Source: Spirochaetia bacterium
GTDB lineage: Bacteria; Spirochaetota; Spirochaetia; SZUA-6; Fen-1364
Assembly (NCBI GenBank): GCA_049515135.1
Contig: JBEKUJ010000017.1
Location: forward strand, 7,332-71,331
Reading direction: 5' to 3'
Length of the DNA stretch: 64,000 bases
The notes beneath the pieces are model-generated. The model was not told where the DNA came from. It did not search any database and worked only from the letters and a program-made list of their open reading frames with translations. Position 1 is the stretch's first letter; the number at the start of each line of letters is the position of its first letter. This document shows positions 2,845-63,749 of this stretch, piece by piece. The translations under genes were made by a program, and so were the position numbers.

Positions 2845-3681
2845 CTACAGCGCTGAATGCACGAGCAGCTGGGTATAGGCATGCTGCGGGTCCTCGAGGA
2901 TCTGGTCGGTAAGCCCCTGCTCCACCACGCACCCGTCTTTCATGACGAGCGTGCGGTCGGCAAGGAGCCGGATCACCCCCATGTCGTGGGAGACCACGAT
3001 CATGGAGATCCCCAGCTCGCGCTGCAGCTCGCGGATCAGGTCAAGCACGCGGGCCTGCACGCTTACGTCCAGGCCGGAGGTGACCTCGTCAAGGAGAACG
3101 AGGGGCGGATTGTTCGCCAGGGCTTTTGCAATCTGGATCCTCTGCTGCATCCCCCCGGAAAGAGACCGGGGGAAGCGATCGATGTAGGTCGCGGGAATTT
3201 CCGTCCTGGCAAGCAGTCCTGATGCCCGCTCCCGTATGCGGGCAAAATGGAAGACGTCTGCTTCCAACAGTTTCTCCGCGACGTTGGCGCCGCTTGTGAT
3301 GTCCATACGGAGCCCGTGCATCGGGTTCTGGTACACCATGCCCATCAACCGGCCGCGCAGCCTTCGCTTTTCGCTGCGGGGCAGCCCAAGAACGTTGTCC
3401 CCGCCGTTCTGGCCGTTGAAGGCGATCTCCCCATGGGTGGCGTCCAGGTCGAAATAGATACATTGAACAAGGGTGCTCTTGCCGGACCCGCTTTCACCGA
3501 CGACACCCAGTATCTCCCCTTCCTTGAGGTCGAATCGAATGCCTTCCATCGCGGCTATGGACCCGCACCTGGCGCAGATGTTCGTGGAATGCTCGGGGCC
3601 CGTGAGGTCGCGGCAGGAGCTGCATCCGGGGCCGTAGCGCTTTCCCAGGTCCTGCACGCGGAGGAGAACCTGGTCACCCAT
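2845..3681 (-). CDS. phnK: PhnK, C-P lyase system ABC-type ATPase-like subunit
   Basis: Walker A GESGSGKST, signature LSGGMQQRIQIAKAL, Walker B LVLLDEVTSGLD. Start ATG at 3681 (MGDQVLLRVQDLGKRYG) overlaps the phnJ stop (ATGGGTGA). The ORF-track extension upstream of 3681 is rejected. Confidence 0.85.
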   Translation of the reverse strand: MGDQVLLRVQDLGKRYGPGCSSCRDLTGPEHSTNICARCGSIAAMEGIRFDLKEGEILGVVGESGSGKSTLVQCIYFDLDATHGEIAFNGQNGGDNVLGLPRSEKRRLRGRLMGMVYQNPMHGLRMDITSGANVAEKLLEADVFHFARIRERASGLLARTEIPATYIDRFPRSLSGGMQQRIQIAKALANNPPLVLLDEVTSGLDVSVQARVLDLIRELQRELGISMIVVSHDMGVIRLLADRTLVMKDGCVVEQGLTDQILEDPQHAYTQLLVHSAL

Positions 3682-4570
3682 GGGCAAGCCTCCCCCGCCG
3701 GGGGATTGCCCCCTCGCGCACGAGGTCGCAGAACCCGGAATCGGAGCAGACGCGCGAGGCTTGACCCGTGGTTTCATCATAGATCTCGTCCAGAAAAGTG
3801 CCGCTGGACCCGCAGCGCGCGCAGCACATGCCGAAGAAGTTCTCCACGGTGAACGGCATGTCGTCGAACTCCAGCGGCTGCACGGATGTGTGGGGCGGCA
3901 CAGCATAGACCCGCTTCTCCCGCCCTGCTCCAAGGAGAGTCAGGTGCTCGGCGTCGTGAAGAAGGGGCAGGTCCCACCGGGGCAGGGGCGAAGGAGACAT
4001 GATGTAGCTGTCGTGGACCCGGCAGGGATAGCCGGAAGTCAGGGAGATGGACCCGTTCTGAACGACGTCCTCATAGAGGGACACCCACATGCGGGCGTAG
4101 TCCCCTTCGGAGTGCATCCGCCGGGTCTCGACCTCGCTGGGCTCCACCAGGCGGAGGGGCTCAGGGAGTGGGACCTGGAGCACGGCGATCTGGTCGGATC
4201 TGAGCGGCACCTCGGGGAGACGGTGCCGGGACTGCAGGAGTGTGGCCTCGCGGGAATCGAAGGTCGTGCGCACGCCGGTGGTTGCCACCAGGAGCTTGCG
4301 CAGGTTCACTGCATTCACGCTGCCGTCGCAGCCCTGGTCGATGATTTTCAGCACGTCCTTCGGGCCGATCAGGGACATGGTCACCTGGAGGCCCCCGGTT
4401 CCCCAGCCCCGTGCAATGGGAAGCTCCGGCGAGGCGAACGGCACCTGGTGGCCGGGCAGGGCCACTGCCTTCAGGAGCGCGCGCCGCACCTCCTTCTTCA
4501 CCCCTTCGTCAATGAAGGCGAAGTTGTAGCGAAAGCCCTTCCCCTGGGGCAGAAGCTCTTTCAGCGTCAC
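3674..4570 (-). CDS. phnJ: PhnJ, radical-SAM-type C-P lyase catalytic subunit
   Basis: 298 aa aligning along its full length with E. coli PhnJ (AVAIPGYQVPF, WGTGG, LFGAGREKRIYAVPP). Carries the C-terminal four-Cys cluster CCARCGSSGTF...RVCSDSGFC. GTG start at 4570 overlaps the phnI stop (GTGA). Confidence 0.9.
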   Translation of the reverse strand: MTLKELLPQGKGFRYNFAFIDEGVKKEVRRALLKAVALPGHQVPFASPELPIARGWGTGGLQVTMSLIGPKDVLKIIDQGCDGSVNAVNLRKLLVATTGVRTTFDSREATLLQSRHRLPEVPLRSDQIAVLQVPLPEPLRLVEPSEVETRRMHSEGDYARMWVSLYEDVVQNGSISLTSGYPCRVHDSYIMSPSPLPRWDLPLLHDAEHLTLLGAGREKRVYAVPPHTSVQPLEFDDMPFTVENFFGMCCARCGSSGTFLDEIYDETTGQASRVCSDSGFCDLVREGAIPRRGRLAHG

Positions 4571-5658
4571 TCTTCTGCGCCTCTTTGCGCACGCAGCCGG
4601 TCAAGGTCCGCCTGGAAGGTGACGTAATGGGGGAGCTTGAAGTGGGAGCAGAACCCCGAGGCCTCCACGCCGTCGGTGTGAAGGAGCACGAACTCCTGGT
4701 CCTCTGCGGGCGCGTGAGGGGTCGGCGACCTCATGGTGCGGTCCAGCACCCCGAGGGAGATGGCCTTCACCTCGTTGTGTCCGAAACACGAGCCGTACCC
4801 CAGCGTGAAAGTCGGCTTTTCCTCCCCCTCGGCGCGCTGGAACGATGCGACGATCTCCACCTCGGTCAGTGACACCGAGCCCAGCGTGACTGCTGCGCCT
4901 TTCCTCCATGGGTGAGGGATCTGCACGCTCACCCGGCCCACGCGCAGCTCCCCGACCGTGGGATGGATGCTGCCGTAACCGCGCATGCTGCTGTACGCCA
5001 GCGCCAGCACGCCGCCCGTTTCCGCCCGGGCCAGCATCTGCAGCCTGCCGCTGCGGTCCAGGGGGAAAGTGGCGGACTCCTGCGTGATGTCAGTGGGCTC
5101 GGCGGACGAGGCCGGCGGCACGGGGGGGACCAGCTTCTGGTCGCGAAGCATGTCCACCACTTTGCGGAAGTGCGCGGGCTTCAGGGGGTCCGCAGCGTTG
5201 TCGAGGCCAGCCTCGAACTCACGCACAGCTTCCTGCTGGACCTCCGCGGTCTCTTCCGCCAGAGAGAAATCCAGGATCCGCTGCTCGTAGTCGGATGTGG
5301 AGCCCAGGACTTGCCCCCCCGGGATCGTCTTGAACGCGCTGGAGATTCGCCGCAGGATCCTCATCTCCCCGTTGCGGACCGGAAGGCTGTCCACCAGGCG
5401 GCGCAGCGTGGACCGATACGCACGAAGAAGGAACGACGCCTCAATCGGATCGCCGGATGCCTGTTTGATTGCAAGGGCCGCATGAAACGGAGAGTACAGG
5501 CCCCCCTCGCTCATCACCCTGTCCACCAGCGGGCCCATCTGTTCCATGATCTGATTGACCGAAAGCGGCGCGCTCTGTCCCTGGAGTCTCCGATACCGGT
5601 TGAGCTTCTGGGAGTTTTCGATGGCGGTTATCCCGCCCTGGACTGCAACGTAGCCCAT
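4567..5658 (-). CDS. phnI: PhnI, ribose 1-methylphosphonate 5-triphosphate synthase subunit
   Basis: 363 aa with PhnI-like N-terminus MGYVAVQGGITAIENSQKL and conserved central region. Lies between phnH and phnJ with overlapping stop/start codons. Confidence 0.9.
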   Translation of the reverse strand: MGYVAVQGGITAIENSQKLNRYRRLQGQSAPLSVNQIMEQMGPLVDRVMSEGGLYSPFHAALAIKQASGDPIEASFLLRAYRSTLRRLVDSLPVRNGEMRILRRISSAFKTIPGGQVLGSTSDYEQRILDFSLAEETAEVQQEAVREFEAGLDNAADPLKPAHFRKVVDMLRDQKLVPPVPPASSAEPTDITQESATFPLDRSGRLQMLARAETGGVLALAYSSMRGYGSIHPTVGELRVGRVSVQIPHPWRKGAAVTLGSVSLTEVEIVASFQRAEGEEKPTFTLGYGSCFGHNEVKAISLGVLDRTMRSPTPHAPAEDQEFVLLHTDGVEASGFCSHFKLPHYVTFQADLDRLRAQRGAEE

Positions 5659-6269
5659 CAGGCGGGCTCCGCCGAGCTTGTGCGCGGAATGCCTGCGACT
5701 CTGCCGTCTTTGTCGACAAGGAGGAGGTCGATGCCCATGGGGTAGAACATGTTCGCCTTGGACCGCTCTTCGAGGTAGCGCGGGTCCAGACCGGTAACGG
5801 AAAGAATGGCCGCGTCCTTGACCCCGGGGCCGCTCAACCGAAGCGCGTACCCGGCCCGGCCCGGGTCCCCTTCCTCCGACAGCCGGCCCACGCAGAGCAG
5901 AGCGGTGGCGGAGAACTCTGGAAACTCCGGCGTCCCGCGGTTCAGGCGCGTGAAATCCGCATCGAACCTCTCTCCCTCAAAAAGCACGTAGTCGGCCACG
6001 TCGACGTGTCGGAAGGGAGTGGCTAGGTTCATCGACAGGTAGCTGACCCAGTCGGGCCTCAGGCCGGAGGAACCCACGGAAAAAGAAACTCGATGATCGC
6101 ACATTGTCTTGAGGATGGAGAGCGCGGGCGGGCAAAACCCTGCCGGCGCCGACTCATATGGCCGGAGCGGAAGGATCCTGATGGTCCCGGGCCTGCTCAA
6201 GGAATCAAGAAGAACGCGGAACGTGGCCTGGCTGTCGAACACTTCGTCGAAGGCAGTCTCCCGAACCAT
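5658..6269 (-). CDS. phnH: PhnH, C-P lyase complex subunit
   Basis: Start ATG at 6269 (MVRETAFDEVFDSQATFRVLLDSLSRPG), which matches the PhnH N-terminal consensus. About 204 aa. The upstream extension of the ORF-track ORF is rejected. Confidence 0.8.
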   Translation of the reverse strand: MVRETAFDEVFDSQATFRVLLDSLSRPGTIRILPLRPYESAPAGFCPPALSILKTMCDHRVSFSVGSSGLRPDWVSYLSMNLATPFRHVDVADYVLFEGERFDADFTRLNRGTPEFPEFSATALLCVGRLSEEGDPGRAGYALRLSGPGVKDAAILSVTGLDPRYLEERSKANMFYPMGIDLLLVDKDGRVAGIPRTSSAEPA

Positions 6270-6280
6270 CTTCGCGCCTC

Positions 6281-6718
6281 CTACCGCACTTCGAAGCTGA
6301 CACGGGTTGTGGCCGCAGCCCTGCTTTCCGCTTCCCATCGACTCCTGATCCGTCTTTCCTCGGCTTCCAGCAGCGGGGCGAGCTGCGCGGCCATGGCGTG
6401 CCCGCCGCCGATTACGGCATCCAGCAGGGCGCTGCACAGCGCCCGGTCTTCTCCCGAACCCAGGACGCAGCCGTACCCCGGCAGGCCGCCCACGTCCACT
6501 TCACATTCCGTAACGTACGCCTCTCCGAGCAGGAACTGGATGTTCTCCAGAGGGTCGACCTGCCTCACCATGACCATGCCCGGAGAGGGGGACTTCAGGA
6601 CTCTGACGGGTAGCCGGTTCACGATGACCTGGGCAATCTCACGCACCGCGTCAAGCTCACCCTCGGCGGCAATCTCTGAATGGTCCATCATGACGGGACG
6701 ATAAAACCAGAGTTGCAT
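6281..6718 (-). CDS. phnG: PhnG, C-P lyase complex subunit
   Basis: About 140 aa, alignable to E. coli PhnG (…RMGGTGERFFAGDATLTRAAV… vs …QVDPLENIQFLLGEAYVTECEV…). Real start may be the ATG at 6691 or 6688 (MMDHSE) rather than 6718. No clear RBS for any candidate. Confidence 0.7.
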   Translation of the reverse strand: MQLWFYRPVMMDHSEIAAEGELDAVREIAQVIVNRLPVRVLKSPSPGMVMVRQVDPLENIQFLLGEAYVTECEVDVGGLPGYGCVLGSGEDRALCSALLDAVIGGGHAMAAQLAPLLEAEERRIRSRWEAESRAAATTRVSFEVR

Positions 6719-6750
6719 TAGTTTTCGATTAGGGAGGTGTTAAAAATCTG

Positions 6751-7881
6751 TTATTTCCCGGCCAAAGTCCAGGACGTGCAGTCTTTCACCGCATCGACAA
6801 GGGATCTCATCGTCGCCGGGGTGACGTCTCCGATGGTCCCGATGCGGAATGTGCGTGCGAGCGAGACCTTGCCGGGATAGATGACAAAACCCCGTGACTT
6901 CAGCCCTGCATAGAATGCCGGAAACGAATACCCCGGATCTTCCGGCTCCAGGAGCGAGGTGATGATGGGAGACTGAAGGCTCTCATCGAGAAGGCTTTGA
7001 AACCCCAGCTGACTCATGCCCTGCACGAGCACGAAATGGTTCGCGCGATACCGGGCGTTTCGGGCCGCCACGCCGCCCTCGTTGTCCAGCTCAAGGAGCG
7101 CCTGGGCGAATGCCCTCACCACGTGAGTGGGAGAGGTGTACCTCCACTTGCCGTTCTCCTTCTCCATCGTGCGCCACTGATCGTACAGGTCCAGGGAGAG
7201 GGAACGCGCCCTGCCTTCGCACGCCTCGAGGGTCTTTCTGCGGGCAACGACGAAGCCGAACCCGGGCACACCCTGGATGCATTTGTTGGCGCTGCTTACC
7301 AGGAAATCCACTCCCAGCTCGCCGATGTCCATGGGAATGCCGCCGAAGCTGCTCATCGCATCGACAATGAAGCAGCGGCCGCTCTGGCGAACAATAGCCG
7401 CGATGTCGTCCAGGGGATTCAGGATGCCGGTGGTGGTCTCACAGTGCACCAGGGCGACATGGGTGATGGAGGGATCGGCGCTGAGCATTGTCCGCAGCTG
7501 TTCCGGGTCGGGCCACGCTGTTTCCACGCTCCGCGCCACCGTATGTGCAATCCGCAGCCTCTGGGCAATCTGCGCCATCCGCTCGCCGTAGGCGCCGTTG
7601 GCCAGTATCAGGACCTTTCCGTCGGCCGGCACCGCGGTGCCGAGCACAGCCTCGACGCAGAATGTGCCAGATCCCTGCATCAGCACGCCCGTGTAGCTCT
7701 CCGGGAAACCGACAGTGGCAATCTCCACAAGCCGGCGCCGAATGTCCTGCACGATCTCGTTGTATTCAGCGTCCCACGTGCACCAGTCACGCAGCATGAC
7801 CTCTTTGACCGTCGCGGTCGTGCTCAAAGGCCCGGGGGTGAGGAGCACATACGGGTTCCCGGGCAGCTCACGCGCGCTCAT
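6751..7881 (-). CDS. phnW: 2-aminoethylphosphonate:pyruvate aminotransferase (PhnW)
   Basis: 376 aa class-V aminotransferase with the PhnW-type N-terminus [32 protein letters not shown] and PLP-lysine region [15 protein letters not shown]. Overlaps the phnX stop by 14 nt. Confidence 0.85.
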
Positions 7882-8728
7882 GCGACTTCTCCCGGGCAGG
7901 CTGCTCGCCCTTGATGATGCGCTCCTCGATCCTGGCCAGGACCTCCCGGCAGCTTGCCACGCTTTCCGTCACGTAGTGGGCGCCCGTTGCGCGAAGGCGC
8001 TTCTCAGCCTCCTGGATGCGCGCGACGCGCTCCTCAGCGCTCAACTGCTCTGCGTCGGTCCTGGAAAGCCCGACCTCGTTGCCGGAGAGCGTGACGCCGA
8101 CCGTCCACATGCCGGCGTTGAGACCTTCCGCGACGTCCGCCTGCGTGTCACCGATCTTCACCATTCGTCGGGGAGGAAACACCTGGAGCTTGATCGCGTT
8201 GAGAAAGCACATCCACGGGTAGGGCCGGCCGGCGGTGACATCCGAAGGACAGACCACGGCATCCGCGGTGAATCCCTGCCGGGCGGCTTCCGCGGTGAGG
8301 ATGTCCATGAGGGGACGCAGGTACCCTGTTGTGGAGCCGATCTGGATGCCCCAGCAACGAAGCTCGTCAACCAGCTCTCTGGCTCCCGGAACCAGCTCCG
8401 AATGCCGCCGTACAGCCGCCATGAGGCGGGGCTCAAGCTCTTCGTACAGGGAGTCCACGTCCTGGGGCCCGGGATCAGCTCCGCAGGCATCCCTCCAGAG
8501 GCTGCTGATGCCGGGATCGGCCAGGAGACTGCGGATGTGCTCCCGCTTCTCCAGGCCCATGGGTCCGCGCGCCTGCGCGATCGTGAGCGGCACCCCTCGG
8601 CGTGCGAAGGTCTCCACAATCGAGACAGCTGGCGCGAAGCACCCGAAATCCACGACCGTGCCCGCCCAGTCGAAGATGACCGCCGATATTCCGCCATCGT
8701 CGTTACTGCCGCCGTTCTGTTTCCGCAT
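7868..8728 (-). CDS. phnX: Phosphonoacetaldehyde hydrolase (phosphonatase, PhnX), HAD superfamily
   Basis: HAD motif I in [14 protein letters not shown], matching PhnX (AVILDWAGTTVDFGSFAP). C-terminal [17 protein letters not shown] also matches. The ORF-track start at 8764 is TTG. The internal ATG at 8728 gives an N-terminus of E. coli-like length, but the start is uncertain. Confidence 0.8.
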
Positions 8729-55863: not shown

Positions 55864-57195
55864 TTAGATCTGTCCGCCCGTCACGAGCGCCTGCACGGTG
55901 TCATGCAGCCACTGCGCCGCGTCATGCGGCGACTTCTGAGCATAGACGACGAAGTTGACTGCCCGCATGTTGGCATCGCTGACAGGGCCCCAGTTGACGG
56001 GCTCCTGCGCGTGGGCCTGCGGAAGCAGGGCGGCAAACATCTTGATCCAGTTGCCCAGCGGACCCTGGAAGGCCGGCAGATCGAGGGAGTCCGTCCGGGC
56101 CGGAATTCCACCCGAGCTCGCCATCCAGTTGCCCATATTCTCCTTGGAGGTGACAAACTGAATCAGCTTCCACGCGCCTGCCTTGTCCTTGGAATAGTGG
56201 TTCATCATGATGGGCTTCACTTCGAGATACGTGCCAGCAACGCCGCCGTCGGGAACGGGGAGGGCGGTGACGATGGAAGTGTCCAGTATCTTCTGAGCCG
56301 TGGGGTCATTGTTGCGCCTGCCCCAGAGCCACGGTCCTTCGGGTGCCATGGCCCACTTGCCGGAGGCATAGCCGGGGTCTTCGCTTGGCCAGCCGTTCCC
56401 GCGCTCTTCAGGGTTGGCCGCGGGGTTGTCGCCAGTGTATGCCTGCCCGTAAAGGGTCAGGATCTTCTCCAGCTGGTCAACAGTGGGATTGTAGGTCTTC
56501 TGGCTTCCCGACACGGTGAACATCGGTTTGCCCTCTCCCACCTGGAACCACCAGGAAATGAACTCCTGCGGAGCGCGCGGATCGCCGACTTTGGTGCAGA
56601 GGAACAGGCCCCACATCTGCTTGTTCGAGGCCTTGGTGATTGCCTGGGCGGTGCTGATCAGCTCAGACCACGTCTTGGGAACCGACAGGTTATACTGATC
56701 AAGAACATCCTTGCGATAGATCAACCCTCTGGCGTTCGTGTTGTACGGGATTCCGTACAGCTTGCCGCCGATTGTCAAAGGGGCAAGCGTTGCAGGAACG
56801 AACTGGCTCTTTTCAGCCCAGCCGTTGAAATACGAATCCAGGGGCTCGATATCGCCTTTCTGGACATACACGGCCGTGTCCTCGAGTAGTCCCTCAATAA
56901 CGTCAGGCGAACCGCTCTGGGCCTGCACGAGGTACTTTTCTCTCTGGGGTCCATAGTCGCCCGGCCCGAAGAAGTTGTCGACGTTGTAGTCCGGCAGGAC
57001 GGTCTTTACGTTTGCAACCCATTGCTTCACGTAGTCGGGTGAAACCTCCTGGGTCACGAAAGGCATGGCCCAGAACGAGAGTGTTCCCTTGGCGCCTCCG
57101 CCGCCTTCCGCCTTTCCGCCGGCAAATGCCGCCGCAGCGCTGCTCAGGAGCAGGGCCGCAACGAGAATGCAGACAATACTTTGAATTCGTCTCAT
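55864..57195 (-). CDS. ABC transporter extracellular solute-binding protein (family 1)
   Basis: Signal peptide MRRIQSIVCILVAALLLSSAAAAFAGG. SBP_bac_1-like. RBS GAAGGAG before ATG 57195. Confidence 0.8.
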   Translation of the reverse strand: MRRIQSIVCILVAALLLSSAAAAFAGGKAEGGGGAKGTLSFWAMPFVTQEVSPDYVKQWVANVKTVLPDYNVDNFFGPGDYGPQREKYLVQAQSGSPDVIEGLLEDTAVYVQKGDIEPLDSYFNGWAEKSQFVPATLAPLTIGGKLYGIPYNTNARGLIYRKDVLDQYNLSVPKTWSELISTAQAITKASNKQMWGLFLCTKVGDPRAPQEFISWWFQVGEGKPMFTVSGSQKTYNPTVDQLEKILTLYGQAYTGDNPAANPEERGNGWPSEDPGYASGKWAMAPEGPWLWGRRNNDPTAQKILDTSIVTALPVPDGGVAGTYLEVKPIMMNHYSKDKAGAWKLIQFVTSKENMGNWMASSGGIPARTDSLDLPAFQGPLGNWIKMFAALLPQAHAQEPVNWGPVSDANMRAVNFVVYAQKSPHDAAQWLHDTVQALVTGGQI

Positions 57196-57499
57196 ACGTG
57201 TAACTCCTTCTCTGGAGAGTTTAGCATTCCTGGCATGACGCCATCCCTGAAGCCGTCCGTCGGCATGTTCCCTGATGCCTGGAGACTTTTTTCAGCATCA
57301 CCTCCTTCCAACTGGTTGTCCGGGAAATACGACGAGGGACGGTCTGCTGGGCTGCGTCCGCCGGGTGAGGAATGAATGTGTGACGTGAAAATTACATGAG
57401 AGAAGCAGGCATGAGATGACTGACTGAAGACCGCATCACCCCACACGGATCCCAGGTTAATGAAAACCCGAAAACCATGTCAAGGGCTTATGGTACATA

Positions 57500-59206
57500 T
57501 CAGGTTTCTGGATTCGATTCTCCCTGCTGAAGTGACTTTCGGACCCTGGAAAGCAGGCCCACCTCGTCGAATGGCTTTTCTAGAAGGTCGGCGTCAGGCT
57601 CCAGCATCCCGTGACGAGAAACAAGGTCCTCGGAATAGCCTGACATATAGAGGATTCTCACTCCGGGCTGCAGCGCGCGAAGTCTGAGCGCCAGTTCGGG
57701 GCCGCTCATGCGCGGCATGACCACATCAGTCAGCAGGAGGTGCACCTCACGATGCGTCGAGCTGACGATCTGCAGGGCTGCGTCGCCGCTGTCTGCCTCC
57801 AGCACACGATAGCCGTTCCTCTCCAGGAGTGCGCGACAGTAATTCCGCAGGGCTTCCTCATCCTCCACCAGGAGTATCGTGCCGCCGCCCCGGTCCGATG
57901 AACCCGGCACGGGCCGGCCCGGGTCCGCGGACCGCGGCTCGAAGGCCCTCGGGAGGGAGATCTGGAAGGTGGTCCCTTCTCCTACCGCGCTGGTGCAGTA
58001 GATGTAGCCCCCGCTCTGCTTGATGATCCCGTACACGGTTGCAAGTCCGAGGCCGGTGCCCTTGCCCATCTCCTTGGTCGTGAAGAAGGGCTCGAAGATC
58101 CGGGTGAGAGTCTGGTCGTCCATTCCCATGCCGGTGTCCGCGACGGTGAGCATCACGTATTCACCGGGCGGCATTTCCGGATGGGCCGCCTGCGCGGCGG
58201 CAAGCTTGAGGTTGGAGGTCCGAAAGGAAAGGATGCCTCCCCGCGGCATCGCATCACGGGCATTGGCGGCCAGATTCATGATCACCTGCTCGAGCTGCCC
58301 CTGGTCCGCCCTGACGTTTCCCGCGTCCGGTTGAAGGTGGATCTTCAGCTCGATGTCCTCACCGATCATGCGCGGAAGGATCTTCTCCATGCGCCGCACG
58401 ATCTCGCCGAGGCTGAGGATACGCGGCTGGAGGATCTGTTTGCGGCTGAAGGCCAGGAGCTGGGCAGTGAGATCAGCCGCCCTGTCCACGGCCCTCCTGA
58501 CCTCACGCATGTCGGCCCGCAGGGAGCCCGTTTCCGGCAGTCCCTCCTCCACCAGCTCCGTGTAGCCCCGTATCACCGTGATAAGGTTGTTGAAATCGTG
58601 AGCAATTCCGCCAGCAAGCCTTCCCACCGCCTCCATCTTGCGCGCCTGCGAGAGCTGCTCTTCGCTTCGGCGAAGCGCCGTCTCTGCCTGGACCCGCGCG
58701 GAGATGTCCAGAACGCTGACCAGCATGTAGGGGTAGGGATCGTCTTCCGGCGGGATGTACATCCGGATCGCGATGTCGATCCTCTTGCCGGTGGTCGTCA
58801 CCGCGTTGGACTCCGCGGCGCAGTACCTCCTGCCCTCCCACACTGCAAGGATGTTGTCCCGCATACTGGCGCGAGCCGCAGGGTCCCGCAGATCGAGCCG
58901 TGAGTCCAGCGGTCCGCGCAGAGATTGGGCCCTGGCCACTTCGTAGAGGGCCAGGGTGGCCTCGTTCACATCGACCACCCGGATCAAGCGGGCGGCCTCA
59001 CCCAGGAAATCCGGGTTGGAATCCAGCCAGGCTCCCAGGTCATCCACGCCTTGGGCCCGCAGCTCCTTGAGCGCGGCCCGAAGCCCGGCTATGTCCTCTT
59101 CCCAGAGGGAGACCGCAGAATGCTGGAAGATACTCCTGTAGCGCGATTCCCCATGAGACAGAACAGGCCTGCCCCTTGCGGCCCCCTTTCGCGGGCGTGC
59201 GTGCAC
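57500..59206 (-). CDS. Hybrid sensor histidine kinase/response regulator (PAS - HisKA - HATPase - REC)
   Basis: H-box [13 protein letters not shown] boxes ([24 protein letters not shown]), C-terminal receiver [11 protein letters not shown]...LLLTDVVMP...KPF. GTG start 59206, 7 nt after the upstream stop. Confidence 0.85.
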
Positions 59207-59212
59207 AACGGT

Positions 59213-61150
59213 CTAGTTGCCGCCCGGTCCGCCCTGCGGCCTTTGCCCACCCTGCGGCCCCGGTTCACCCTGCGGCCCCGGTTCACCCTGCGGCCCCTGC
59301 CCGCCCTGCGGCCCCTGCCCGCCCTGCGGCCCCTGCCCGCCCTGCGGCCCCTGCTCGCCTCCCTGCTCAGGCCTCTTCTTCTTCAGAATATCGTCGTTCG
59401 ACGGCCCGGGCTGGCCCCCTGGCCCACCCGGCTGTACCCGCGGTCCTTGCCCTTGCGGCCCCCGTGGTCCTTGCGGTCCCGGCGGCGTCCCTGCCTGCGA
59501 CCCACGCGATCCTTGCGGCCCCGGCTGCACTCTGGGCCCGGGCTGACCGGCTCCTGATCCCGGGGAGACCACTCGCGGTCCCTGAGGATTTCCTGGCTGC
59601 GGGCCCTGCCCTCCCTGGATCCGCTGAGGCCCGCCTTGAGACCGAGCGGCCGGGTTCACGACCACCGGCGGACTCTGCCCCGGCGAAGTCCTCCGCAAGC
59701 CCTGGAGCGTAGTCTGGTCTACAGGTCTTCCAGGATGAGCCTGCATGGCTTGCTGCCGGGCGGCAAAAGGCACCGGAGCCGGGGGCGGAGCCACCCGGGC
59801 CACGACCGGCCGCGACATGATCATGGCCGGCGGCTGCGCCGCGGGGCCCATCACCGGCCGGCCGTAAACGCTCTCCCTCACGGGCGCCACGGGGGCATAT
59901 GTGCCCCGAACCGGAGCCCGCATGATTTCTGCATTCGACACGGCAAACGCCGAGCTGTTCACAGGTTGTGCGCCCACAAACGCCCGGTTCGGCACGGCCA
60001 CCACCGCGCCCGGCACGGAACGGTTCACCCATCGGTAGGTTGTTACGTTGATGGTCTGCGCGTTCATGACTGTCACGTGACTGATGTTGATGTTCCGTAC
60101 GTAGACATTGCTCACTGCATAGGGAGGAACGTACGGCTCACGCGGGCCGAGGGGGAACCACGCCACGCCTCCGGCGGATCCCATGGAGGAGCCCCAGCCG
60201 TTCCCGCCGACAAAGACCACAAGAGCGGGGGCGTAGATGGGACGGACGACAATCCTCCCGGGAACCCATACCCAAGCCCCGCCGAAAAACGTCCAGCGTC
60301 CATAGTGGAAAGGCGCAAAGCCCCAGGGCGCATCGTCGATCCATGTCCAGCCCCAGGGATCCACCCAGGCCCAGTGCCCGTAGCGGTAGGGCGCCCAACC
60401 CACCTCAACCGTGGGCTGCCACACCGCACCATACCCCGGCATGACCCGCCACACGCCATTGGCGTCCAGGTCCTCGACCCCGATCATCTCCCGGGGCACG
60501 TACTGCGTCGACGCCATCCGATCTTCCCCGCGGTCCCGGTCCTGGCACCACTGGTCCCACTCGTCGGGCTCGCCGGCCATGCTCGCTTCATAGCTTGGGG
60601 AATCGAGGCCGGATATGTCGGCGGCCTGGTCCGGGTAGACGGAGAAGGAGGAGTCCCCGGCCATGACCTCGGCTTCGCCGGACCGCACCGTGAGGCTCGA
60701 GTCCCCTGTTTCCTGTACGTCCACTCGGTAGCTGCCGGGCTGCGTCAGCGTAATGCTGGAGTTGGGGGTGTCCACCTCCACGACCTCGTTCGGGTCCAGG
60801 CGGCGCAGCCTGATGTTCAGCGATCCGGTGGAAAGCCGGATCTGCATTGTCTGGTCATCCAGGTTCAGCAAGGAGAACTCCGTGTTCGATGCCAGGCGGA
60901 TGGCAGTGGAGCCGACATGTATCTCCGCCTGTCCGTCCTGGTCCGCCCAGAGATGGTCGCCTGCGGTGAGCGGATAGTTCAGAGTGGCAGGAACCCAGTC
61001 CTCCATGCTGCCCGGGCGGAAAGAGACCGTCCCCGTAAGGAGGTTTATGCGGCCCACCCGGTCGGGCGGATCAGCCCACAGAAGGCCGCCGCACCCGAGC
61101 ACAATGAGCATGCCCACGAATGCCAGGACCAGTTTTTTGTTTGTTTTCAT
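59213..61150 (-). CDS. Secreted protein: FecR-like beta-sandwich N-domain, Trp-rich central segment, C-terminal collagen-like G-P-Q repeats
   Basis: Signal peptide [26 protein letters not shown]. Trp-rich segment [31 protein letters not shown]-terminal ([12 protein letters not shown])n Gly-X-Y tract. ATG 61150 with GGAGAC RBS. Confidence 0.6.
59226..59360. repeat. Tandem 18-bp and 21-bp direct repeats encoding collagen-like GPQGxQ units
   Basis: ccctgcggcccctgcccg repeated about four times (59286-59358) and ccctgcggccccggttcac repeated twice (59250-59291), seen directly. Confidence 0.7.
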
Positions 61151-61344
61151 GTTCGTCTCCGGAAGCCCTTGAGAGGCTTGTATCCTCATAAAATGGTATC
61201 TCCCTGCTGGCTGACTGTCAATTCAAGTCAGGCCCTCCGAGGGCCACGCCAGGTGCGCGTGAAAGAAAATTAACACATTGATAACACCGCCCGAGCCGGA
61301 TTGGTATACTTTCCTTGGAGAGGTTTTTTATGGAGGTTTCTTTC

Positions 61345-62760
61345 ATGACCAAGCGACGCGCGGCGAGTATCGGGTTGATCCTTCTTCTGGCTTTCCCAGG
61401 GCTTGTTTCCGCCCAGGCCCCCAATGCCCTTCAGTCCATGCAGGCTGCCTTCCGGCAGGTGGCGCAGAAGGTGCTTCCCGTCATTGTGGAAATCGACGTC
61501 ACCGAAGTCATCAAGCAGAGACAGCCTCAGCTGGACCTTCCGTTCGACTGGTTCTTCGGCCAGCCCCAGCCCAATGGCGGAGAGCGGTCATTTCGACAAT
61601 CCGGCCTGGGATCCGGCATCATAGTGCGCAAGGCCGGAAACACGGTTTACGTCTTGACCAACAACCACGTGGTCAAGGACGCCACCGACATCAGCGTAAG
61701 AATGAACGACGGCCGCATTTCCAAGGCAAAGGTGGTGGGCGCGGACCCGCGGAAGGACATGGCGCTGGTGTCATTCGAGACGCAAGACCAGGTGAGCCTG
61801 GCCGAGCTGGGAGATTCCAACTCGCTGGAGGTGGGGGACATTGTTTTTGCCGTGGGCAATCCCCTGGGCTTTACCTCCTCGGTGACGATGGGAATCGTGA
61901 GCGCTCTTGGCCGTCGGGCGCCCAGCGGCGATGTTGCCACGTACACGGACTATGTCCAGACCGACGCTCCGATCAACCAGGGCAACTCGGGCGGCGCGCT
62001 GGTGAACATCCGGGGTCAGGTCATCGGGATGAATACATGGATCGCCGCCCCCAGCGGCGGGAACGTCGGGCTCGGGTTTGCAATCCCCATCAACAACGCG
62101 CGGCAGGCCATTGACGACTTCATCGCCAAGGGACGGGTGGAGTACGGCTGGCTTGGGGTGCAGATCGGAGACATCCAAAGCGATGGACCGTCCCTTGCCA
62201 TTGCCCGGGACCTCAAGGTGGAAGGCACGAAAGGCGCCTTCATCTGGAACCTCTACCGGGGCTCCCCGGCGGACAAGGCCGGGCTTCTTCCCGGCGATTT
62301 CGTGACCAGGGTGGAAGGCAAGAGCATCACCGACAGCAGCGAGCTCACCCAGATCATCGGCTCGCTCCCTGCCGGTGAATCGCGGGAGTTCACCGTGGTC
62401 CGCTACGGGAAACCCCTCACGCTGCGCGTCACCATTGGCCGGCGGGACGACCAGGACCGCGTGGCGCAGTCGAAAAACCTGTGGCCTGGGCTGTCAGCCG
62501 TTCCCCTCACCGACGAGGTGCGCCAGGACCAGAACATTCCCCGGGGAGTCCGCGGGGTCATCGTGGGTGACATCACGGATCAGAACACGCCGGCAGCCGT
62601 CGCGGGGATCCAGGCAGGGGACATCATCAAGACCGTCAGCGGGAAAAACGTGAACAGCATGATGGACTACTACCGGACGCTGAACGAAGCCTCCGGGCGG
62701 ATGGTAAGCTTCGGGATACTGCGCGACGGGAATGACATCACCATCGGGCTCACCCGGTGA
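61345..62760 (+). CDS. DegP/DegQ/HtrA-family periplasmic serine protease with two PDZ domains
   Basis: Signal peptide MTKRRAASIGLILLLAFPGLVSAQA. TNNHVV, DMALV, GNSGGAL catalytic motifs. Alternative ATG at 61330. Confidence 0.85.
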   Translation: MTKRRAASIGLILLLAFPGLVSAQAPNALQSMQAAFRQVAQKVLPVIVEIDVTEVIKQRQPQLDLPFDWFFGQPQPNGGERSFRQSGLGSGIIVRKAGNTVYVLTNNHVVKDATDISVRMNDGRISKAKVVGADPRKDMALVSFETQDQVSLAELGDSNSLEVGDIVFAVGNPLGFTSSVTMGIVSALGRRAPSGDVATYTDYVQTDAPINQGNSGGALVNIRGQVIGMNTWIAAPSGGNVGLGFAIPINNARQAIDDFIAKGRVEYGWLGVQIGDIQSDGPSLAIARDLKVEGTKGAFIWNLYRGSPADKAGLLPGDFVTRVEGKSITDSSELTQIIGSLPAGESREFTVVRYGKPLTLRVTIGRRDDQDRVAQSKNLWPGLSAVPLTDEVRQDQNIPRGVRGVIVGDITDQNTPAAVAGIQAGDIIKTVSGKNVNSMMDYYRTLNEASGRMVSFGILRDGNDITIGLTR

Positions 62761-63749
62761 GCTCAGAGCCTGGCGGCCCGGCGGCCAACCCTCCTCCTTC
62801 GCTGCTCACCGTAACGCCTGCTCATCGCGGCCTCCGGGCGGACGCCTTCCTGGCGATTGCGCTCCCGTTTCTCTCACGCACCAGAGTTCGCCAGAAGATC
62901 CAGACCGGTGAGTCCCTCCTCAACGGGCGGCGCTATGCCACGTCGGCCCGCCTTGCGGCCGGAGACGTCCTCACTGTCTCCTGGAGAAGCGCCCCTCCGT
63001 CGAGGTCTACCCGGCAGTTCCACGTTCTTTTTCAGGATGAGCACATCATTGCCGTGGACAAGCCAGCCGGCGCTGCTTCCCATCCTGCCGGGAGGTTTCA
63101 ATCCGACACCGTCATTCAGTTCGTTCGGGAGCTCCTGGCCGCCGAAACCCGGGCAAGCTTGAGTCAGGACGGGGATTTCTTCCCGAGGCTGGTCAACAGG
63201 CTCGACGTATTCACAAGTGGCGTGATCCTGGCTGCCACGACAGGCCTTGCCTTGCGGGAAATGCAGAGCCTCGCTGCCTGCGGAAAGATCAACAAGCGCT
63301 ATGTCGCCCTGGTGGAGGGTGTCGTAGCCGGGGAGCACGGCATGATCGATCTGCCCCTCGGGCCTGATTCCAAAAGCTCCACCAACCTTCGCATGGCTCC
63401 GCGGGAGGACGGCCTTGCATCCGTCACTGACTTCGTTGTGCTCCGCCGTCTTCCCGCGCACACGCTCCTGGCGGTCTTTCCCCGAACAGGCCGGCAGCAC
63501 CAGATCCGGGCTCACCTGGCCGCCGCGGGGCATCCGGTGTGTGGTGATCTCCTGTACAAGGATGAATCCCTGTTTCTCAGATACCAGCGCGCCGGCGGGG
63601 TGCCCGACCCGTCACTCCCTCTCCGACACTGCCTGCACGCGGAAGAGGTCGAGTTTCTCCAGCCGTTCACAGGCCGGCGCATCCTCATCCGCTCGGCTCT
63701 GCCATCCGATTTCCTGGACATCCTCCACGACGTTAAAAGCCCGGCGTGA
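62757..63749 (+). CDS. RluA-family 23S rRNA pseudouridine synthase (RluD-like)
   Basis: HIIAVDKPAG and catalytic-Asp region RLVNRLDVFTSGVILAA. GTG 62757 overlaps the protease stop (GTGA). Confidence 0.8.
   Translation: MSSEPGGPAANPPPSLLTVTPAHRGLRADAFLAIALPFLSRTRVRQKIQTGESLLNGRRYATSARLAAGDVLTVSWRSAPPSRSTRQFHVLFQDEHIIAVDKPAGAASHPAGRFQSDTVIQFVRELLAAETRASLSQDGDFFPRLVNRLDVFTSGVILAATTGLALREMQSLAACGKINKRYVALVEGVVAGEHGMIDLPLGPDSKSSTNLRMAPREDGLASVTDFVVLRRLPAHTLLAVFPRTGRQHQIRAHLAAAGHPVCGDLLYKDESLFLRYQRAGGVPDPSLPLRHCLHAEEVEFLQPFTGRRILIRSALPSDFLDILHDVKSPA

Follow-up and report, generated by a model that had tools for sequence, protein, structure and literature searches.

FecR/PupR-type sigma regulators of cell-surface signalling are defined by a cytoplasmic anti-sigma domain at the N-terminus, a transmembrane helix that crosses the membrane once, and partner genes nearby for an extracytoplasmic function (ECF) sigma factor and a TonB-dependent transducer (PMC7186176). 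In Burkholderia, one operon encodes both a secreted LysM-FecR protein and a histidine kinase carrying a periplasmic CHASE2 domain (PMC5192318). Bacterial collagen-like proteins (Scl1/Scl2; Pfam Collagen PF01391) display a G-X-Y periodicity encoded by number-variable tandem DNA repeats, and CckA-like kinases combine a HisKA domain bearing an AHDFNN H-box with HATPase_c and a C-terminal receiver. A further set of proteins, annotated 'DUF6600 domain-containing protein' or 'FecR domain-containing protein', unites FecR with the Pfam domain DUF6600 (PF20245); a full-text literature search found no paper mentioning DUF6600 or PF20245. The window analysed here is a 64-kb stretch (64,000 nucleotides) of contig JBEKUJ010000017.1 from a Spirochaetia bacterium (assembly GCA_049515135.1). 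Its minus strand encodes a FecR-like/DUF6600 protein of 645 residues, and a hybrid histidine kinase gene lies directly downstream. The explanation we favour, and hold to be reasonably probable, is a Sec-exported soluble envelope protein of the FecR-like/DUF6600 family, with a slippage-prone tail and a clade-limited co-expression with the kinase.

The window protein shares with FecR/DUF6600 proteins the full architecture of residues 1-490 and a low-complexity, repeat-prone tail. It differs from them in an 18-bp array encoding (E/G)(Q/P)GPQG units, which occurs only in the window's strain lineage, and in the directly downstream kinase, which is confined to this Spirochaetia clade and one betaproteobacterial clade. 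The LysM-FecR/CHASE2 operon ('BiofilmReg', COG4254; Burkholderia and Pseudomonas) likewise places a signal-peptide FecR protein directly upstream of a kinase, across a gap of ~10 bp (PMC5192318). However, the window protein has no LysM domain, and the window kinase has neither CHASE2 nor any other periplasmic domain nor a membrane segment. There is also no adjacent DNA-binding response regulator in the window, and DUF6600 is missing from the LysM-FecR system.

The FecR-like/DUF6600 protein and its family

The gene and its parts are laid out below (pLDDT, predicted local distance difference test; TRF, Tandem Repeats Finder).

61193..61221, minus strand: promoter-like site TTGACA-17-TACCAT (consensus scan, 10/12 matches; a consensus match only)
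59213..61150, minus strand: coding sequence of the putatively exported FecR-like/DUF6600 protein, 645 aa plus stop (open reading frame, GGAG, starts of relatives, homologues)
61073..61150, minus strand: predicted signal peptide, aa 1-26, with putative cleavage after LWA and before the conserved DPP (sole hydrophobic segment)
60566..61063, minus strand: FecR-like beta-sandwich, aa ~30-195 (the Pfam FecR match covers 60671-60949)
60140..60475, minus strand: DUF6600 domain (PF20245 match), three tandem 26-residue Trp-rich beta-hairpin repeats, aa 232-309
59681..60139, minus strand: conserved C-terminal part of the core, aa 338-490 (not covered by Pfam; pLDDT 70-92)
59216..59680, minus strand: Gly/Pro/Gln-rich tail, predicted disordered, aa 491-645, with a clade-conserved NDDILKKK patch (pLDDT about 40)
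59229..59359, minus strand: in-frame tandem array, 18 bp x 7.3, encoding (E/G)(Q/P)GPQG units (TRF)

The protein divides into a conserved core of ~490 residues and a variable tail. The core comprises the predicted signal peptide, the FecR-like beta-sandwich, a helical linker, three Trp-rich hairpin repeats and a further conserved region. Across 76 aligned sequences (alignments A1-A3), 73 columns are invariant, and the signal peptide, the FecR-like domain, DUF6600 and the conserved C-terminal region are collinear. An AlphaFold2 (AF2) model built from this alignment has a pLDDT above 90 for residues ~30-260, remains acceptable to ~450 and drops to about 40 for residues 490-645.

The first-pass annotation, made from the sequence without database searches, had proposed a FecR-like beta-sandwich, and this fold holds. 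Pfam FecR (PF04773) matches above its cut-off (E 1.4e-5, 25.8 bits against 24), and a Foldseek search with the model confirms a FecR-like fold (E 7e-7 to 7e-6). The Trp-dense segment reported beside it is equally real, coinciding exactly with a DUF6600 match that scores 89.4 bits (E 1.8e-25; cut-off 27) and spans profile positions 2-101 of 102. Read from the sequence, this segment consists of three 26-residue tandem repeats (about aa 232-312; 60214-60457) in the register G-x-W-x6-G-x-x-W-x-P...(G/W)(W/F)AP(Y/F)xY, also written G.W...G.VW.P....GWAPY, each modelled as a beta-hairpin. The Trp, Gly and Pro positions of the repeats are near-invariant across the 76 sequences, which span four phyla. 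Comparison of the DUF6600 part with solved structures gives no significant neighbour, only weak matches to single-layer beta-sheet proteins (MORN, the CPAP G-box and OspA), and a PDB sequence search with the family profile returns only spurious low-complexity matches (E>0.2). Conservation extends to residues 338-490 in every full-length relative. A sub-threshold match to the NCBIfam Leptospira adhesin Lsa19 (17.9 vs 250 bits) was set aside, as it reflects the common FecR domain and not membership.

The protein also looks exported, in agreement with its earlier description as secreted. Its single hydrophobic segment (aa 5-28; Kyte-Doolittle 2.44 in a 19-residue window at aa 7-25) is followed by a near-invariant W-A/S-DPP-x-RVGR motif, with little or no variation at D27, P28 and P29. 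The segment is probably a cleaved Sec signal peptide, preceded by a cytoplasmic part of only about 4-6 residues. A lipoprotein reading of 'VLGC' was dropped, the Cys not being conserved in the close relatives P0002 and P0013.

The minus-strand open reading frame (ORF) spans 59213..61189, and the ATG at 61150 is the likely start, giving a 645-residue protein that begins MKTNKK. A GGAG lies 6 nt before this ATG, and the start Met is common to nine of ten aligned relatives, the tenth (P0002) being called with a 14-aa N-terminal extension. The promoter-like site at 61193..61221 would put the transcription start downstream of the alternative ATG at 61189 and thereby favours 61150. Two antisense ORFs, 59636-61273 (+; 545 aa) and 59176-59712 (+; 178 aa), overlap the gene. 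They are shadow ORFs and not independent genes, since such frames are typical of DNA of 62-75% GC and recur opposite the gene in other loci. The 64-kb window holds no paralogue of the DUF6600 gene, and an Rfam search of it gave no match.

The first-pass annotation regarded the combination of three modules as unusual. Judged by the homologues, this is how members of the DUF6600 family are canonically built. A word-indexed search yields at least 8000 homologous proteins (90% clustering); the best 120 listed contain PF20245, and most of them PF04773 as well. When 50%-identity representatives were searched exhaustively, 3,623 clusters matched at E<=1e-30, and the top matches, 383-1128 aa long, align over the whole core of residues 1-490. 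Identity to thousands of family proteins is 45-80%; the window protein itself is not present in the protein collection searched. Among species-representative genomes there are at least 591 loci/species, spread over Spirochaetota, Acidobacteriota, Gemmatimonadota and Beta- and Gammaproteobacteria, mostly as metagenome-assembled genomes (MAGs) from soil and peat. A cultured carrier is Undibacterium arcticum KCTC 42986 (L058), without an adjacent kinase.

Some genomes carry more than one family member. Tandem pairs of DUF6600 paralogues occur in Acidoferrales and other Acidobacteriota (L034, L042, L044, L055, L060, L064 and L081), with one copy at ~3200-5700 beside another at 5800-8500. The upstream copy is ~40-43% identical to the window protein and has a Gly/Ser/His-rich tail (GGGGGSHGGGG...), versus a Pro/Gln-rich tail in the downstream copy. 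In the Spirochaetia MAG SPRUCE 568 (locus L006), a second paralogue (L009) bears a 304-aa tail with a 78-bp x 3.9 repeat.

The tail and its tandem array

The tail of the window protein (G 28-36%, P 18-24%, Q 17-21%) is predicted to be intrinsically disordered over residues 491-645. Its array is placed after the conserved Lys-rich patch, within the last 48 codons, and is the sole TRF array scoring >=60 in the window (59229-59359; period 18, 7.3 copies, 90% matches, score 178). The 18-bp unit noted in the first pass is thus confirmed, and the accompanying 21-bp unit is not, as TRF found no such period. The units include two copies of EPGPQG, one GQRPQG and three of another type, with runs of identical units (3x and 2x).

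With a period of 18 bp, equal to six codons, in frame and at the extreme C-terminus, the gain or loss of a unit alters only the length of the tail. On/off (phase) switching is thereby precluded, and the start codon of the downstream kinase is left untouched. The array therefore lacks the property of a contingency gene, in which a change in unit number shifts the frame or the promoter spacing. Of the phase or length variation suggested at first, only the length change, on an evolutionary scale, is seen. Replication slippage would add to the tail, or trim it, six residues at a time.

Contig L001 (ENA ERZ27250166), which encodes the closest relative, P0001, is 99.6-99.7% identical to the window over 4.3 kb of DNA, with a clean 54-bp deletion in the array. 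Unit number is seven in the window and four in L001, a single comparison in which assembly collapse is possible. Relatives at 64-78% identity end in ...DQGGQGQPGGPGGN, without any array. Since the array is missing from these relatives, its expansion, as read from the sequences, is recent and lineage-specific. The four-unit array of L001 is either a pre-expansion allele or a collapse within a k141 short-read assembly. JGI metagenome contigs scanned for exact matches, first to the flank and then to two repeat units, gave no further alleles.

The alternative that survives best takes the repeat number to be stable, the difference between seven and four to be an assembly collapse and the tract to be a fixed low-complexity tail. 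L001 retains exactly one copy of each distinct unit, which is the pattern expected from collapse of a de Bruijn graph, and the search produced no other near-identical contigs for comparison. However, single k-mers should span the array, since its 131 bp fall short of k=141. The next relatives lack the tract, so the expansion is recent in any case, and differing in-frame repeats throughout the family show that turnover is common. A stable repeat is a serious possibility, though not the one we prefer.

This family-wide turnover is visible in the tails. All 89 of the 89 tails read are low-complexity and variable. Complete ones measure ~100-380 residues (a few others are cut at contig ends), are rich in Pro/Gln/Arg/Glu/Lys or Gly/Ser and often end in a Lys/Glu-rich patch. 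A tail-coding tandem repeat with a TRF score >=50 is present in 63 of 85 family genes, and its period is a multiple of three in 62 of the 63. With so many tails bearing tandem repeats of their own, the window array is one case of a family-wide habit.

The downstream kinase and its linkage to DUF6600

The junction and the kinase comprise the following features.

59207..59212, minus strand: 6-nt spacer ACCGTT between the TAG stop (59213-59215) and the kinase GTG start (59206), read from the sequence
57500..59206, minus strand: soluble hybrid histidine kinase, 568 aa (Pfam, motifs, PAS model)
about 58703-59149, minus strand: PAS domain of the kinase
58436-58624, minus strand: HisKA domain
57947-58306, minus strand: HATPase_c domain
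57542-57877, minus strand: receiver (REC) domain

Pfam recognizes HisKA, HATPase_c and REC (Response_reg) in the kinase. The H-box His (H203, in AHDFNN), the N, G1 and G2 boxes (NLAANA at 311, DTGMGM at 357 and GTGLGL at 383) and the receiver Asp (D494) are all in place, as in a hybrid histidine kinase. No membrane segment is found (Kyte-Doolittle 19-residue maximum 0.91). Pfam detects no PAS domain in the N-terminus, and the AF2 model of residues 1-185 (pLDDT 84.9) matches LOV/PAS structures (Foldseek E 5e-7, target TM 0.7-0.78), so that this region is clearly modelled as a PAS fold with a helical insertion. The kinase thus conforms to its initial description as a cytoplasmic PAS-HK-REC protein. 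The best NCBIfam and PDB matches are CckA-like, with scores far under the CckA equivalog cut-offs (419 vs 1000 bits). The kinase has the HisKA, HATPase_c and C-terminal receiver of CckA-like kinases, but it has no membrane anchor and only a single divergent PAS with its helical insertion.

The PAS region (58652-59206, minus strand) carries the insertion at aa ~40-74 and an invariant 13-residue motif; a search of 5.8 billion sequences returned only seven relatives of this N-terminal PAS. The orthologous kinase in the relative at 64% identity (L004:9002-11089) is 695 aa long and has an extra canonical PAS (PAS_4/PAS_9, aa 185-299) between the divergent N-terminal PAS and HisKA.

The stop codon of the DUF6600 gene and the GTG start of the kinase lie as close as first reported, the gap being 6 nt where 7 had been given. 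No promoter-like or terminator-like site occurs between the two genes. In L002-L004 the junction measures 7-13 nt, and L002-L005 retain both genes of the pair, with the divergent HtrA and RluD genes beside them; genes further downstream differ, with an ABC transporter in some and a major facilitator superfamily (MFS) transporter in others. Within this Spirochaetia clade, the DUF6600 gene and the kinase are probably co-transcribed and perhaps translationally coupled.

Linkage at large was surveyed with a kinase-core hidden Markov model on the flanks of 83 family loci, ~1 Mb in all. Seven kinase-like ORFs were found.

L002, L003, L004 (window's clade), directly downstream on the same strand: soluble hybrid kinase
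L041, L068 (Betaproteobacteria), directly downstream on the same strand: soluble PAS-HisKA-HATPase-REC kinase, 24-27% identity, then a REC-PAS regulator
L006:3861-5729 (minus strand), divergent neighbour: membrane dCache-HAMP-His_kinase, 191 bp from the DUF6600 gene
L018: distant kinase-like ORF

Downstream sequence of >=2 kb is available for 67 loci; a kinase directly follows the DUF6600 gene in 5 of them, and these five represent two independent origins in two unrelated lineages. All-vs-all clustering of the flank ORFs from the 83 loci reveals no gene family common to more than seven loci, and Pfam describes 19 sampled neighbours as a heterogeneous set with several regulators. In the two betaproteobacterial MAGs (L041:5974-12007 and L068:5947-11120), the DUF6600 gene is followed 75-259 bp downstream by the kinase and then by the REC-PAS response regulator, with a Crp-like regulator behind the latter in L041.

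The reading put forward in the first pass makes the exported protein an extracytoplasmic sensor or adhesin that relays to the adjacent PAS hybrid kinase, with the repeat providing phase or length variation. It can draw on the Burkholderia operon of a secreted LysM-FecR protein and a histidine kinase (PMC5192318), on the conservation of the pair in the clade with its tight junction, on the independent DUF6600-kinase arrangement in betaproteobacteria L041 and L068, and on the fact that six of the seven kinase-like ORFs in the flanks adjoin the DUF6600 gene. Against this stands the topology. The exported protein has no real cytoplasmic part and the kinase no extracytoplasmic part, so direct contact is implausible, and the periplasmic CHASE2 domain of the Burkholderia kinase is missing here. 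Furthermore, 62 of the 67 loci have no kinase directly downstream, other Spirochaetia (L006-L009) included, no conserved neighbour of any kind emerges, and the in-frame repeat rules out on/off switching. We regard such a sensor-kinase relay as unlikely. Under the explanation we favour, the link between DUF6600 and the kinase is most likely one of co-expression or regulation, not direct sensor-kinase contact, and the PAS domain would sense something cytoplasmic.

The genes around the pair (54-64 kb) encode HtrA, an RluD-like protein, the hybrid kinase and a sugar ABC transporter. The divergent genes at 61315-63749 (+) specify an HtrA/DegP-like protease (Trypsin_2 and two PDZ domains) and an RluD-like pseudouridine synthase; a second HtrA paralogue lies further upstream in L003 and L004. 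Just past the kinase stop, at 57455-57490 (minus), a promoter-like TTGACA...TTAACC was seen by eye and not reported by the scan. It lies ~270 bp upstream of the gene for the sugar ABC-transporter binding protein (55864-57195), and the sugar ABC operon may have its own promoter.

Remaining alternatives and meaning for the family

A true collagen-like domain, trimerising into a triple-helical stalk and making the protein a surface fibre or adhesin, would be consistent with the 13 uninterrupted G-X-Y triplets at aa 598-636, in which Pro and Gln are frequent at X and Y. The periodicity claimed for this tract is present, and a collagen domain is not recognized in it. The tail has no match to the Pfam Collagen model even at E<=10, and its longest run is 13 triplets, compared with 20 in that model. 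Gly occupies the X position in four triplets (GGQ), RPQ breaks the run, and no trimerisation module is evident. Unlike the tracts of bacterial collagen-like proteins, this one sits at the extreme C-terminus of a predicted disordered tail and is absent from close relatives (64-78% identity), with only seven triplets in the near-identical L001. The AF2 model of the monomer is disordered, which is weak evidence, as it cannot exclude a trimer. Taken together, these features make a collagen stalk highly improbable.

Least probable of all, to the point of near dismissal, is a FecR/PupR-type sigma regulator (an anti-sigma factor): it is favoured by the FecR domain that Pfam recognizes and by a strong structural resemblance to periplasmic domains, those of PupR (the C-terminal cell-surface signalling domain, PDB 6ovm/6ovk) and BDI_1681 (4m0h), at ~14-17% sequence identity, but only MKTNKK precedes the hydrophobic segment where an anti-sigma domain would be needed, there is no transmembrane helix linked to a cytoplasmic part and no STN match, no ECF sigma factor or TonB-dependent transducer occurs in 54-64 kb of the window, whose gene neighbours recur in the clade relatives, and an ECF-sigma-like ORF is found in the flanks of only 6 of the 83 family loci.

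The first-pass observations on this locus are thus borne out with small corrections, and the interpretation attached to them is supported in part. In the explanation we favour, that of a soluble envelope protein with a slippage-prone tail, the core would bind a ligand or partner in the envelope or serve as a scaffold for it. Several points weigh against this account. The binding or scaffold role is a conjecture, and a Trp-rich core with so little variation suggests a more precise function than the account specifies. The four-versus-seven unit difference could be an assembly artefact of the k141 short-read contig. The adjacency of six of the seven kinase-like ORFs in ~1 Mb of family flanks, together with a similar soluble PAS hybrid kinase downstream of DUF6600 in two betaproteobacteria, hints that the two genes are functionally tied, for which 'mere co-expression' may be too weak a description. 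Only the recurrence of a soluble PAS hybrid kinase at this position beside DUF6600, in two lineages far apart, keeps such a tie alive.

Carried further, this would make DUF6600 proteins functionally wired to soluble PAS hybrid kinases, as a recurrent two-gene module, arisen independently in Spirochaetia and Betaproteobacteria, in which the tail tunes the reach of the protein across the envelope. The kinase pathway could then control production of the protein or respond indirectly to its export or turnover. We consider this a long shot; if true, it would open a first route to the function of a family that numbers over 3,600 clusters and is built around a near-invariant Trp-rich repeat of 3 x 26 residues.

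In conclusion, the finding taken alone matters little, being a typical expansion of a fast-evolving tail in a domain combination that is already catalogued. The wider point is that the DUF6600/FecR-like proteins form a very large uncharacterised exported family, present in at least 591 species and built around an almost invariant Trp-rich core. The few lineages with a DUF6600-kinase operon could offer an experimental entry point to it.

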